A DNA stretch of 64,000 nt, taken from positions 672,001 through 736,000 of the forward strand of contig CAWCNY010000006.1 in NCBI GenBank assembly GCA_963797095.1, given 5' to 3'. This DNA comes from an uncultured Chloroflexia bacterium. Lineage in GTDB: Bacteria > Chloroflexota > Chloroflexia > QHBQ01 > JADMIH01. The notes under the pieces are model-generated. The model was not told the DNA's origin, did not search any database, and saw nothing but the letters and a program-made list of their open reading frames with translations. Within the stretch, counting starts at the first letter, position 1. Each line of letters begins with the position of its first letter. The position numbers and the translations under genes were made by a program. Positions 120 through 62,618 of the stretch are shown here, in pieces.

Positions 120-350
120 TTGACAAATAAGATTGGCGAAACCAGGGTAGAAGGCAAGGTCGCAGAAGCGGCGCCAAACAGCACATGGAGTGTGCAACTC
201 GACAACGGCCACATGGTAATTGCCCGGCTCGATGACAAATTGAGGATGAACGCAGTACGCGTGATTCCGGGCGACCGAGTGGCGCTGGTGCTTTCTCCCT
301 ATGATCTCACCAGGGGCCGGATCGTAGAGCGGCTGAAACAGACGAAGTGA
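120..350 (+). CDS. infA: translation initiation factor IF-1 (divergent)
   Basis: EGKV..A.PN, LDNGH, PGDRV, LSPYDLTRGRI motifs; TTG start; synteny map-infA-rpmJ. Confidence 0.88.
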   Translation: MTNKIGETRVEGKVAEAAPNSTWSVQLDNGHMVIARLDDKLRMNAVRVIPGDRVALVLSPYDLTRGRIVERLKQTK

Positions 351-443
351 GAAGTGAAGCGTAATGAGTGAAACGTGATGCGTGAAAATGAAAGCGTATC
401 GCACAAATGAAGAAGACAGGTCACATATCACGTATTACGCATC
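347..443. repeat. inverted heptamer arms, CGTGAAA/TATCACG family
   Basis: gtgagaa gtgaagc gtaatga gtgaaac gtgatgc gtga ... tcacata tcacgta ttacgca tca between infA and rpmJ. Confidence 0.75.
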
Positions 444-469
444 AGAGATCGGTTAGGAGTTAATTAGAA

Positions 470-583
470 ATGAAAGTACGAGCATCAGTGAAGCCGCGCT
501 GCGCCAAGTGCCGAATCATCAAGCGGGCAGGCGTGGTAATGGTCATTTGCAGCGACCCGAAGCACAAGCAACGACAGGGCTAA
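470..583 (+). CDS. rpmJ: 50S ribosomal protein L36 (zinc-binding type)
   Basis: Not in ORF track; manual translation [42 protein letters not shown] upstream. Confidence 0.97.
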
Positions 584-657
584 TTGCGGAACGCCGGTTG
601 CGTGTTTGTCTCCTTACCAGGACAAACCCGCAATCCAAAATCTGAAATCCGCAATTC
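582..657. repeat. inverted heptamer arms, ATTGCGG/CCGCAAT-CCAAAAT family
   Basis: aattgcgg ... ccgcaat ccaaaat ctgaaat ccgcaat t. Confidence 0.75.
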
Positions 658-674
658 CCAAGTGGGAGGAATAA

Positions 675-1046
675 GTGGCAAGAATCGCCGGCGTAGACAT
701 TCCCCGCAACAAGCGGGTCGAGATCGCACTTACCTATATATTTGGAATCGGGCCGACCAGCGCCAAGCAGATCGTTGCCAGGACCAATGTGGACCCCGAC
801 ACCCGCGTGAATAACCTCACTGAAGAAGAGGTCAACCGCATCCGCGAGGTAGTCGACAAGGAGTACACCGTCGAAGGCGACCTGCGCCGTCAGGTTAGCA
901 TGAACATCAAGCGCTTGATCGAAATCAAGTGCTATCGCGGTATCAGGCACACCCGCGGTCTGCCCGTGCATGGGCAGCGTACCCGCACCAATGCACGCAC
1001 CCGCCGTGGCCCTCGCAGGACAGTAGGCGTCCGCCGCAAGAAGTAA
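675..1046 (+). CDS. rpsM: 30S ribosomal protein S13
   Basis: [38 protein letters not shown]. Confidence 0.98.
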
Positions 1047-61226: not shown

Positions 61227-61267
61227 GCTACGGGCTTACGTGTGCCAATCTATAACTTGGAGATTGC

Positions 61268-61690
61268 GTGAATACACAGTCCAGAGGTGATCTCGTCAGG
61301 ACCACAGGTTTGTATTTACTGACACTTGCGGGGAGTGGGTTAGTGCTGCTATGGTGGTGGGGCATGGGCGGCTTTGCATGGCACCATTTCTTGACGCCTG
61401 CGGAGCAACTTGAGCTACCGGCTGTGATGCCCTATGACGTTGAAGTGCCTTATCCCTGGACGCCCGGATTCGGGCGCGGGTTGATGGCGGTTTTGTTTGT
61501 CGCAATCATTGTATTCGTTGCGGCGAATACGGGGATATTGGCGAGTCGTGTGAAGGGAGTCTCTGTTCACCTTAGTTATCGTACCTGGTCAAAGTGGGCA
61601 TTGGGCGGATGGTTAGTATTATTCTTGCTGTCGTTGTGGGCATGCGCTCTACTCTTCTGGGGAACGACGATGTGGGACGGGACTCGGTAG
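61268..61690 (+). CDS. small membrane protein
   Basis: Three hydrophobic segments; GGAG upstream of GTG. Confidence 0.55.
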   Translation: MNTQSRGDLVRTTGLYLLTLAGSGLVLLWWWGMGGFAWHHFLTPAEQLELPAVMPYDVEVPYPWTPGFGRGLMAVLFVAIIVFVAANTGILASRVKGVSVHLSYRTWSKWALGGWLVLFLLSLWACALLFWGTTMWDGTR

Positions 61691-61720
61691 CTTTGGGCCG
61701 AGATTGGATTGTAACTGAAG

Positions 61721-62503
61721 TTGATTCTTGACCTGACAAACAAGAGGGCTGTAGTAACAGGGGCCGGGCGCGGGATCGGGCGGGCTTCGGCGTTGGCTCT
61801 CGCGGGCGCCGGGGCTGATCTTGCGGTTACAGCCCGCACGATGGCTGATCTGGAAAGCCTGGCGCGCGAGATCGAGGCGTTGGGTAGGCGGTGCGTTGTA
61901 CTGGAATGCGACGTTACCGATCCGGAGGCTGTGCAAGCTATGGCCGAGGGCGCGCTCGCGGGGTTAGGTGGAGTCGATACCCTGGTGAATAACGCGGGAC
62001 GCGGGGAGAGCCACCCGTTCAAGGACCATCCAGATGAACTCTGGCACAAGATGATCGCGGTCAACCTGACGAGCGTGTATTACGTGACCAAGGCATTCGC
62101 GCCCTCTTTGATGGCTAACAAGTGGGGCCGGATCATCAATATCGCGTCTACGGCAGCGAAGGCGGGTGAGAAGTATGTGGCCGCCTACACGGCAGCCAAA
62201 CATGGGGTGCTTGGGCTGACGCGGTCGCTGGCGGCTGAGCTTGTTGGGTATGGGATCACGGTGAACGCGATCTGCCCCGGCTTCGTGGACACCCCTATGA
62301 CAGAGGATAGCGTTGCCAACATAGTGCGTCGGACGGGTATGGACGCGGAGCAGGCGAGAAAGCGGCTCGAAAGCGCCAACCCCCAGAAGCGGCTGATCCA
62401 GCCAGATGAGGTGGCGGCTATGGTAGTGTACCTGGCGTCGGATGCGGCAAGCGGTATCAACGGGCAGGCGATCAATATCGATGGGGGAGCAGTAATGAGT
62501 TGA
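61721..62503 (+). CDS. short-chain dehydrogenase/reductase
   Basis: TGAGRGIG, NNAG, YTAAKHG, NAICPG.V.T, G..I.IDGG. Confidence 0.92.
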   Translation: MILDLTNKRAVVTGAGRGIGRASALALAGAGADLAVTARTMADLESLAREIEALGRRCVVLECDVTDPEAVQAMAEGALAGLGGVDTLVNNAGRGESHPFKDHPDELWHKMIAVNLTSVYYVTKAFAPSLMANKWGRIINIASTAAKAGEKYVAAYTAAKHGVLGLTRSLAAELVGYGITVNAICPGFVDTPMTEDSVANIVRRTGMDAEQARKRLESANPQKRLIQPDEVAAMVVYLASDAASGINGQAINIDGGAVMS

Positions 62504-62519
62504 TGGGTGGTGAGGGCCA

Positions 62520-62618
62520 ATGCGTACTGCGTATTGCTTATTGTTGCTTTCGTCACTCGTCACTCGTCACTCGTCACTCGTCACTCGTCACTCGTCACGC
62601 ACCGTTCGTCGTTCGTCC
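62520..62618 (+). repeat. composite heptamer arm (TGCGTAY, TCGTCAC x7, TTCGTC)
   Basis: tgcgtac tgcgtat tgcttat ... (tcgtcac)x7 ... cgttcgt cgttcgt cc. Confidence 0.88.

Follow-up and report, generated by a model that had tools for sequence, protein, structure and literature searches.

Repeats with a seven-nucleotide unit have been known in bacteria since about 1990, and a 1995 paper on the nif intergenic regions of Anabaena reportedly described these as 'variable but structured'. A different class of intergenic element, the repetitive extragenic palindromic (REP) sequences and bacterial interspersed mosaic elements (BIME), consists of imperfect palindromes found past stop codons in operons; they are numerous, vary between strains and are thought to stabilise the upstream mRNA. 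Between hupS and hupL, hairpins are formed by 7-bp repeats of the short tandemly repeated repetitive (STRR) type, for which a role in transcript stability or translational coupling has been proposed (PMC2670836). In Xanthomonas and Nostoc, GGGAATC and GGGGAYT heptamers occur as inverted pairs in a fixed 'convergent' arrangement, with 70 and 75 cases in two Xanthomonas genomes (Rehm et al. 2015, PMC4692102). The G-rich strand is the coding strand 0-50 bp past stop codons, which the repeats sometimes overlap, and the non-coding strand just before start codons (PMC4692102). Chloroflexus aurantiacus has 22 heptamer-derived satellites of the form (GATAGRA)n (Subirana and Messeguer 2019, PMC6749651), and Coxiella 23S rRNA has an intervening sequence (IVS) that carries tandem heptamers (GACAGAT) at the RNase III site, in a copy number that varies between strains (PMC4990558). 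In many prokaryotes the long simple repeats are reported to be most often heptanucleotides, and contacts made by the polymerase have been put forward as the reason (summarised in PMC4679880). Here we describe tandem heptamer arrays, some of them paired as the arms of hairpins, at the gene junctions of a 64,000-nucleotide stretch (the window; G000:C6:672001-736000) from an uncultured soil bacterium of the class Chloroflexia, phylum Chloroflexota.

The assembly under study (G000) comprises 6.02 Mb in 8 contigs with 58% G+C, and the nearest records to its L17 protein, which was used as a probe, are uncultured 'Chloroflexia bacterium' genomes from metagenomes (77-88% identity). The window opens with an infA-rpmJ-rpsM-rpsK-rpsD-rpoA-rplQ-truA-rplM-rpsI operon, and a mur/cell-wall cluster lies further on. 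An earlier note on this DNA had treated STRR repeats as having no known mechanism. The view that they have no known hairpin context is out of date: two papers already describe the STRR hairpins between hupS and hupL (PMC2670836) and the inverted GGGAATC pairs of Xanthomonas (PMC4692102). The period, abundance, placement, pairing and polarity of the arrays, their copy differences, the replacement of one family by another and concerted double changes are observed directly. We lean, with a confidence that is evenly balanced and covers the mechanism proposed below as well, towards the arrays being the local part of a genome-wide 7-nt microsatellite system that is also present in relatives across the genus and order, and that is of the same kind as the cyanobacterial STRR and Xanthomonas GGGAATC repeats.

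Heptamer arrays, paired arms and orientation at gene boundaries

Gene boundaries were taken from a simple and admittedly crude codon-usage gene caller (5299 genes, 87% coding), whose stop codons are exact and start codons approximate. Period-7 arrays were detected by Tandem Repeats Finder (TRF), as exact runs of at least 14 lag matches, and as scored lag segments, with 100-nt block shuffling as the control. The partner of an arm was defined as a reverse-complement match of score at least 10 within 120 nt, the complement, of equal composition, serving as control. Hairpin strength is expressed for each spacer as minimum free energy (MFE) and as z against shuffles.

Period 7 predominates by every measure. 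TRF returned 1326 genomic rows of period 7 against 375 of period 6 and 235 of period 8, and 46 of its 78 rows in the window have period 7. For exact runs, with a minimum of 14 consecutive matches, the counts are 409 for lag 7, of which 327 are intergenic, 51 for lag 6 and 13 for lag 8. The scored arrays amount to 890 at lag 7 vs 17 after block shuffling, with 210 at lag 6 and 42 at lag 8; they are present on all 8 contigs, and by the gene caller's model 680 of the 890 are intergenic, in a genome with an intergenic share of 13%. They reduce to 139 strand-collapsed units, headed by ACGAGTG (equivalent to GTGACGA; 157 arrays) and ACCGACT (equivalent to GGTAGTC; 115 arrays). The marks of an STRR-like microsatellite are all found: an excess of period 7, recurrent units at unlinked loci, a non-coding location and copy-number variation between relatives. 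The earlier note had seen about 30 sites and about ten unit families in the window and had proposed a genome-wide scan against shuffles; the window does hold 31 arrays at a score of at least 10, all ten named families were found, and the scan gave the 890 against 17 just quoted. Its impression that neighbouring arrays draw on different families reflects only the chance rate: 23 of 191 adjacent spacer pairs in G000 have a family in common, vs 25.3 +/- 4.4 expected, and we reject any avoidance by neighbouring junctions of their own family.

Neighbouring arrays tend to be complementary. Among 275 pairs no more than 200 nt apart, 56 are reverse-complement, 5 direct, 2 complement and 2 reverse, and 221 of the 890 arrays have a reverse-complement partner vs 9 for the complement control, so complementary arms are far above chance. 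The excess of paired arms that the earlier note had predicted, and whose absence would have spoken against it, is therefore present. Arms in G000 are unequal in copy number, and the loops are often other heptamer arrays, so that hairpins are nested. Of the 39 window spacers of 40-230 nt, 21 have an array, 12 fold at z of -3 or below and 7 do both.

The ribosomal operon illustrates the arrangement (features here and below are on the plus strand unless stated). Eight of the nine junctions from infA to rpsI had been credited with a hairpin; this resolves into seven that fold clearly on heptamer arms (z -2.3 to -5.4) and a weak eighth at rpoA-rplQ. The infA-rpmJ spacer (348-469) has a degenerate CGTGAAA/GYGTAAT arm past the stop codon and its complement TCACRTA ahead of the Shine-Dalgarno (SD) sequence (MFE -28.7, z -3.2). 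At rpmJ-rpsM (582-674) an ATTGCGG arm begins in the stop codon itself and a CCGCAAT/AAATCCG arm ends ahead of GGGAGG (MFE -33.0, z -4.8). Paired arms follow in the rpsM-rpsK spacer (1044-1141; GACGAAT and ATTCGTC, z -3.0, TRF row 1097-1125), the rpsD-rpoA spacer (2384-2465; GTGAKAC and GTATCAC, z -2.9, TRF row 2423-2448), the rplQ-truA spacer (4252-4321; GACGAAR and YTTCGTC, MFE -32.0, z -5.4), the truA-rplM spacer (5162-5241; GACGRTA and (CCATCGT)x3.4, z -2.3, TRF row 5201-5224) and the rplM-rpsI spacer (5713-5803; TCGGTTG and CAACCGA, z -3.7). The weak hairpin at rpoA-rplQ (3828-3897) consists of a short GGTAGC arm at the stop codon followed by (GACTACC)x4.3 (z -0.9, TRF row 3857-3886). These stems are not intrinsic terminators: the operon 3' arms run into the SD and start codon, not into a T-run. 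A search of the whole window against Rfam, on both strands, gave 0 matches at the gathering score.

The remaining junction, rpsK-rpsD (1565-1759), is the exception, having no heptamer arms. It holds a leader-like element that is conserved in relatives and has no match in Rfam. This structured element (1580-1700; GGGTTGGGAGMTTAGCCCTCC ... CTCCGCGGCAA) lies upstream of rpsD in the window and in nine relatives (the rpsK-rpsD spacers of L001, L004, L006, L008, L010, L011, L015, L018 and L063; such numbers denote loci of relatives), and in several of them a heptamer hairpin stands in front of it. It may be an undescribed ribosomal-protein leader. Beyond the last gene of the operon, the spacer after rpsI (6221-6300) forms a strong, non-heptameric stem (z -6.3) with a T-rich stretch behind it, a likely operon terminator.

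Genome-wide, arrays are densest in co-directional spacers (1.14 per kb), followed by convergent (0.86) and divergent ones (0.43). Measured in co-directional spacers, the median distance from the stop codon to the beginning of the 5' arm is 3 nt (interquartile range (IQR) -2 to 7, n=77), and that from the end of the 3' arm to the next start is 19 nt (IQR 13 to 45, n=69), which places this end just upstream of the SD, in agreement with the proposal that the arms span the gap from stop codon to ribosome-binding site. Overlap with the stop codon was seen for 81 arrays, 62 of which have a stop triplet within their own unit.

The first arm is usually the G-rich one, as had been noticed: 5' arms have more G than C in 56 cases and more C than G in 11. 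This fixed polarity does not point to transcription. Whichever strand is read, an inverted repeat of the form U...rcU shows the same arm first; its polarity thus belongs to the element and is silent on the direction of transcription. As a mark of that direction it is rejected on logic, and the bias is also seen in convergent (7:1), divergent (3:0) and in-ORF (open reading frame; 4:0) pairs.

Orientation also follows stop codons. Since 7 is not a multiple of 3, three copies of a unit with TAA, TAG or TGA are enough to place a stop in every frame. The 5' arms with a stop in one orientation only number 44 for sense and 4 for antisense. Unpaired arrays obey the same rule: the ratio is 69:5 for those no more than 10 nt from a stop codon and 1:36 for those up to 25 nt from a start. 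Arrays lying strictly past the stop codon still show 43:6, so overlap with the stop codon is not the source of the bias. Nor does G-richness alone account for it: at a G-C difference of 1 the ratio is 36:3 for stop-asymmetric units and 23:21 for stop-free ones, although stop-free units with a skew of at least 2 are still biased 31:8. Stops and G-richness therefore both count, and an explanation of polarity by G-richness alone is in part rejected. Every family with at least five boundary arrays has a preferred orientation, including stop-free families of zero skew; summed by family, 355 arrays are in the major and 39 in the minor orientation, where the null has a mean of 251 and a maximum of 275 in 2000 simulations. 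Typically, then, the arm with a stop codon in all three frames adjoins the gene end. Arrays placed and oriented at random relative to genes, which would have told against the earlier note, are not what these ratios (69:5, 1:36 and 355:39) describe.

Turnover among relatives and the origin of the hairpins

The arrays are shared by relatives. Lag-7 arrays were found at 16 of 19 related L17 loci, with up to 18 arrays in 12 kb, whilst of 60 unrelated loci 55 had none and 5 had one. In a second sample, which included four loci (L087, L092, L098, L105) from unpublished genomes (G021, G022, G016, G032), arrays were present at 11 of 19 loci in the genus, 4 of 8 in the sister family and 0 of 2 in a third family. 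Pairing recurs in the relatives' loci (44 reverse-complement pairs, 4 direct, 7 for the complement control). The nine orthologous junctions supply 123 spacers of 40 nt or longer, of which 77 fold at z of -3 or below and 50 have two or more arrays, and one and the same junction is built from different units in different species. In L008, L011, L063, L004 and L007 nearly every ribosomal junction has a hairpin; L003, L005, L010, L015 and L017 have similar spacer lengths, essentially no arrays and mostly weak folds, with a few of their spacers reaching z of -3 or below.

Comparison of orthologous spacers, as the earlier note had recommended, showed that both arms and neighbouring hairpins change together and that cassettes are replaced at a fixed junction. 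In the orthologous GGATTTT/AAAATCC hairpins that precede murD, the 3' arm comes in 4, 5 and 12 copies, and L011 differs from L012 by one unit in each arm. Between L008/L063 and L011, GGATTTC units have become GAATTKC in the 5' arms with the matching change in the 3' arms. An alignment of seven hairpins revealed double, pair-keeping changes at 5 of 27 stem pairs, and relative to L008, L063 and L012 all five are present in both L011 hairpins, which belong to two junctions. Paralogous hairpins within a genome are 86-87% identical and orthologous ones 75-81%. At rpsK-rpsD, L063 has a GAATTAC cassette and L008 a GGATTTC cassette, although the neighbouring spacers are 93-94% identical.

A PF05635 gene lies inside a hairpin of the window. 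ORF 25679-26041 encodes a PF05635 protein (23S rRNA intervening-sequence protein, a four-helix bundle; E 9.7e-15). Its flanks are a GATTTTG arm (25639-25671) beginning within the TGA stop of the gene upstream and, ahead of murD, an (ATCCAAA)x4 arm (26095-26122), so that the whole hairpin (25639-26122) stands between two cell-wall genes and the ORF sits within a long inverted repeat, the arrangement of a PF05635 cassette. In the genus, complementary heptamer arrays from many families enclose 19 of the 20 PF05635 genes sampled, and in the sister family 16 of 21 (12 of 15 without unpublished genome G032). At the orthologous murD junction of 22 loci the gene is present in one, that of G000; L176, L180 and L187 have a hairpin of the same family with a short loop and no ORF, and L186 a degenerate hairpin. 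Given these ORF-less hairpins of the same family, the PF05635 gene at murD was most likely inserted into the loop of an older hairpin. G000 has 2 PF05635 genes vs 890 arrays, and for this reason, together with the murD hairpins lacking the ORF, we reject as a general origin both PF05635 proteins as hairpin makers and ORF-less hairpins as decayed PF05635 cassettes. PF05635 gene counts do correlate with array counts at the L17 locus (rho 0.84, n=20; 0.81, n=17, with the unpublished genomes left out), among kin genomes in which assembly size also correlates (rho 0.59), so that the relationship is confounded by relatedness and assembly size; it fits the notion of more hairpins offering more landing sites.

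The mechanism that we favour combines slippage with copying. Arrays would grow and shrink by replication slippage, one unit per step, and a unit variant could spread, through copying at the DNA level, within its own array, into the facing arm and into hairpins close by. Such copying might take the form of intra-strand template switching, or of gene conversion between complementary or like arrays, and would yield U(n)-loop-rcU(n) pairs. Arrays would persist where they do no harm, mainly in the untranslated gap from stop codon to SD, which they would tend to fill wholly; each family would keep one orientation, mostly with the G-rich, three-frame-stop arm beside the gene end, an inverted repeat offering the same arm first on both strands. 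In a polycistronic mRNA the pair would be expected to fold into a long stem that brings stop codon and SD together, and this stem would be a likely RNase III substrate or barrier to decay. RNase III and Rho are both encoded in the genome. A look for RNA runs covering window positions 1-6300 found none, and two soil DNA runs yielded only short contigs from coding parts, with no spacer bridged by any of them.

Several observations sit awkwardly with slippage and copying. Slippage alone predicts neither a 10:1 polarity nor that one unit should recur at over 100 loci (the top two have 157 and 115 arrays), and the scheme leaves the period of 7 without an explanation. About three quarters of the arrays have no detectable partner at the threshold used. 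Stop polarity is weaker in the relatives' loci, with 11 pairs stop-first, 6 stop-last and 27 symmetric. Finally, near-identical relatives differ by the replacement of a whole cassette, which resembles insertion more than gradual change.

This last point leads to a first alternative, which we nevertheless think unlikely: that the hairpins are copies of small mobile palindromic cassettes, of the REP/BIME kind or resembling MITEs (miniature inverted-repeat transposable elements), which an enzyme would insert between stop codon and SD in place of older copies, with slippage acting only afterwards. It would account for the same units at many loci and for the cassette swap at one junction of close relatives; L008, L063 and L012 also have cassettes with related loops at four junctions. 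The five compensatory changes common to the two L011 copies and the division of one genus into species either full of hairpins or empty of them agree with it too, and the 355:39 family polarity is what the copying of a palindrome would keep, whichever way round it landed. Other observations count against it. Among same-family hairpins of G000 a common non-periodic loop 12-mer was found in 7 of 136 pairs, all seven being mixed heptamer arrays, and a common flank 12-mer in 1 of 136; arm copy numbers are unequal; and comparison of filled with empty rpmJ-rpsM junctions revealed, by inspection, no target-site duplication. The genome encodes four PF01797 (Y1 transposase) genes, of which 0/4 have an array within 2.5 kb, and the PF05635 gene looks like a later arrival in a hairpin loop and not its maker. 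An identity with REP/BIME and their REP-associated tyrosine transposases (RAYT) is rejected on these grounds, with neither a cognate Y1 gene flanked by repeats (0/4) nor a conserved palindrome (7/136, 1/136), as is an identity with MITEs, since there is no constant internal sequence and no visible target-site duplication.

A second alternative, to which we give similarly little weight, holds that the hairpins are primarily selected RNA elements (RNase III sites, exonuclease barriers, or devices for translational coupling or insulation), heptamers being the cheapest mutational route to a long stem. The stems reach from the stop codon to just short of the SD, which is left free, compensatory changes preserve the pairing, and the same architecture is built from different units at the same junction, with 77 of the 123 orthologous spacers folding at z of -3 or below. 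PF05635 genes in the loops recall the 23S rRNA intervening sequences excised by RNase III (PMC4990558), and the same ideas have been raised for cyanobacterial STRR hairpins (PMC2670836). Selection for a folded sense RNA would be expected to leave an excess of G·U pairs on the transcribed strand, which was not seen in 33 hairpins: G·U pairs make up 69 of 1030 in sense and 71 of 1057 in antisense. Over whole spacers the antisense strand folds better in 62 of 90. With G·U pairs equal on the two strands and antisense folding as good or better, complementarity is therefore kept strand-symmetrically, which fits DNA-level copying, or elements too young to have decayed. Most arrays, moreover, are unpaired, hairpins also occur in divergent spacers, and L003, L005, L010, L015 and L017 do with essentially no arrays and mostly weak folds in spacers of similar length.

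The earlier note had offered a choice between a dedicated generating process and selected mRNA hairpins, as opposed to plain slippage. Its negative half stands, in that unorganised slippage is contradicted by pairing, placement, polarity and concerted change. Its two positive proposals fare less well: for a dedicated process no enzyme was found (0/4 Y1 genes near arrays) and there is no common unique loop or flank, and selected mRNA hairpins have to contend with the G·U counts (69 vs 71), with antisense strands that fold as well or better, and with close relatives whose junctions have no hairpins.

More speculatively, and as a possibility that we think unlikely, the hairpins might be self-propagating 'punctuation' cassettes and no passive microsatellites, copied at the DNA level into the gap between stop codon and SD and homogenised between arms and neighbours. 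The survivors would be forms that confront ribosomes coming from either strand with a stop in all three frames, and the stems in mRNA would serve as landing sites for PF05635 (Avd/S23p-like) genes, which are also known from the tips of 23S rRNA helices. In that case a single system that targets hairpin loops would lie behind both the mRNA hairpins and the rRNA intervening sequences, and the enzyme responsible for the 35-year-old STRR puzzle would best be sought in this genus, where some species are rich in hairpins and others have none.

Very unlikely, in our judgement, is a neutral by-product of polymerase slippage that favours 7-nt units, with arrays merely tolerated in non-coding DNA. The prevalence of heptanucleotides and its polymerase-contact explanation (summarised in PMC4679880) would suit it, as would copy numbers that differ between orthologues and neighbouring spacers that share families at the chance rate. 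It is already contradicted by the statistics of pairing (56 reverse-complement vs 5 direct) and orientation (69:5 near stops, 1:36 near starts, 355:39 by family), and concerted changes across arms and loci count against it as well. That the arrays act as DNA, whether by lining up targets for a DNA-binding or nucleoid protein or as places where cruciforms form or recombination occurs, is scarcely credible in spite of their strand-symmetric complementarity and presence on all 8 contigs, for 139 unrelated units ill suit one binding protein, and placement tracks the stop codon and SD instead of promoters, with the lowest density in divergent spacers.

Individual sites beyond the ribosomal operon

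The window's strongest hairpin (11368-11487; MFE -60.3, z -8.8) has (GTGACGA)x4.3 starting 3 nt past a stop codon and (TCACTCG)x2.6 abutting GGAGG. The ORF that follows (11488-12303) contains a perfect 30-nt direct repeat of 2.1 copies (11747-11810). A nested hairpin at 15117-15205 (z -6.3) comprises (AGTCGGT)n, a loop array of the AACCAGG type and (CCGACTA)n running up to AGGAGA. At 54921-55036 (z -3.1) an ATTTTAG/ATTGCGG arm begins in a TAA stop and an ATCCGCA/CTAGAAT arm lies ahead of the SD. Between convergent genes, with no strand assigned, GGACGAA and TTCGTCC arms form a hairpin at 40882-40935 (z -3.9). Three sites are on the minus strand: TACGCAG and CTGCGTA arms between two minus-strand genes (46720-46816, z -3.5); an unequal hairpin (47779-47892) with about 3 copies of CGGTAGT past the stop of the upstream gene vs 10 copies of the complement (GTAGCCG/GTAGTCG on the plus strand); and a spacer made almost wholly of 7-nt units, in four abutting arrays of CGTGAAA, GACGAAA, ACGAGTG and AATACGC (48624-48732).

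Other sites are degenerate or only partly complementary. The GACGRGT ... CGTCNTT arrays at 7681-7758 do not fold significantly (z -0.4), CGTGAAA past a stop codon and CTCGTCG before a start at 21677-21834 are non-complementary (z 0.4), and at 58004-58092 GACGAGT and TACGCAG past a stop codon are partly complementary to CTTTCGT ahead of an SD (z 0.1). Unpaired arrays include (CGGAGTG)n past a stop codon (18207-18233, z 0.1), two copies of GTAGTCG across a stop codon followed by (ACTGGTC)x6 (19756-19815, z 1.8), and (AGTTCCA)x2.9 past a stop codon (58961-58980), found by TRF and as a scored array. By the same two methods an unpaired (CGAGTGA)x6 was found at 43371-43411, where it is the source of the gene's own TGA stop. 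TRF also reported a GGCGAAG array past a stop codon (55872-55890), and scored arrays of (TCGAACT)n in a long spacer (27781-27801) and of GGAATTC/GGAGTTC in a divergent spacer (50110-50136, no strand assigned) complete the intergenic set with one site at 62521-62617, where TGCGTAT, (TCGTCAC)x7 and CGTTCGT lie between a stop codon and an enoyl-CoA hydratase domain as second-arm-type units with no first arm.

Some arrays are in coding sequence. GACGAAC and ATCCAAA arrays lie in the murT frame (14670-14764), between the Mur_ligase_M (aa 54-201) and MurT_C (aa 384-482) domains, and are presumably translated, as a linker. A scored array of AAATCCA lies inside the ORF of a 717-aa FAD_binding_3 and Oxidored_FMN protein (59843-59867). 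By domain annotation, a scored TCCGCAT array (29990-30006) is at the 5' end of a murC-murB ORF; that ORF (29956-32451, 831 aa) encodes a complete MurC-type ligase together with MurB domains (FAD_binding_4, MurB_C), and is a murC-murB fusion.

Two dispersed elements of other kinds were met along the way. Two neighbouring spacers (about 52911-52940 and about 53500-53530) contain, in opposite orientations, a motif with CATCCTGAGCGAAGCGAAGGATCT; its first 16 bases are found 10 times in the genome, and it is a dispersed repeat distinct from the heptamers. The long spacers at 17389-17430 and 27631-27670 have the segment CCCAAAGCAAGTAGTCCCG.AGGGAC in common, another dispersed element, whose first 16 bases occur 6 times.

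Comparison with known systems

The STRR sequences of filamentous cyanobacteria resemble the arrays described here in their 7-nt tandem units, several families per genome, mostly intergenic location and intra-operon hairpins. They differ in host phylum, here Chloroflexota, and probably in unit sequences; a strict identity with cyanobacterial STRR1-3 is not supported, the Chloroflexia host setting the present arrays apart. What is quantified here relative to STRR is the fit from stop codon to SD, the orientation of each family, turnover within a genus and the PF05635 genes in loops. The Xanthomonas and Nostoc repeats are likewise intergenic, form inverted pairs, are oriented at stops and starts and vary in length between related species while the site is kept (PMC4692102). 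One G-quadruplex-forming unit dominates there, whereas 139 units without G-runs are found here, and orientation here is tied to stop-codon content besides G-richness, unlike in that system. The Chloroflexus satellites belong to the same phylum and are also heptamer-derived tandem arrays at many sites, although the part of that report available reports one unit and describes no hairpin pairing and no relation to gene boundaries.

REP/BIME elements with their RAYT share the form of intergenic imperfect palindromes past stop codons inside operons. The present hairpins have no fixed palindrome, their arms consist of tandem heptamers whose copy number varies, and association with a Y1 gene is 0/4. 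The 23S rRNA intervening sequences with an S23p / PF05635 ORF have in common with the murD cassette an ORF enclosed by a long stem; the cassettes described here lie between protein-coding genes, their heptamer stems come from many families, and the hairpin of one junction has no ORF in relatives. A literature search that left subscription journals mostly uncovered found no paper on this system in this lineage, and none tying PF05635 genes to heptamer stems outside the Coxiella IVS; in neither case does this prove absence from print.

In conclusion, inverted heptamer pairs, orientation dependent on stops and starts, and intercistronic STRR hairpins were known already from Xanthomonas, Nostoc and Anabaena. 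The window adds a new lineage to a known kind of repeat. New here are the rule linking orientation to three-frame stops, the concerted turnover of cassettes and the PF05635 genes in hairpin loops. Having hairpins at nearly all or at no ribosomal junctions within one genus, the lineage is an unusually clean comparative set; with different units at the same junction and arms that change jointly, it makes the tracking of genes, the templating of one arm by the other and the cutting of stems or protection of mRNA testable. The three-frame-stop rule at gene ends suggests a simple function that can be assayed, and the PF05635 genes in hairpin loops connect heptamer repeats with rRNA intervening sequences.

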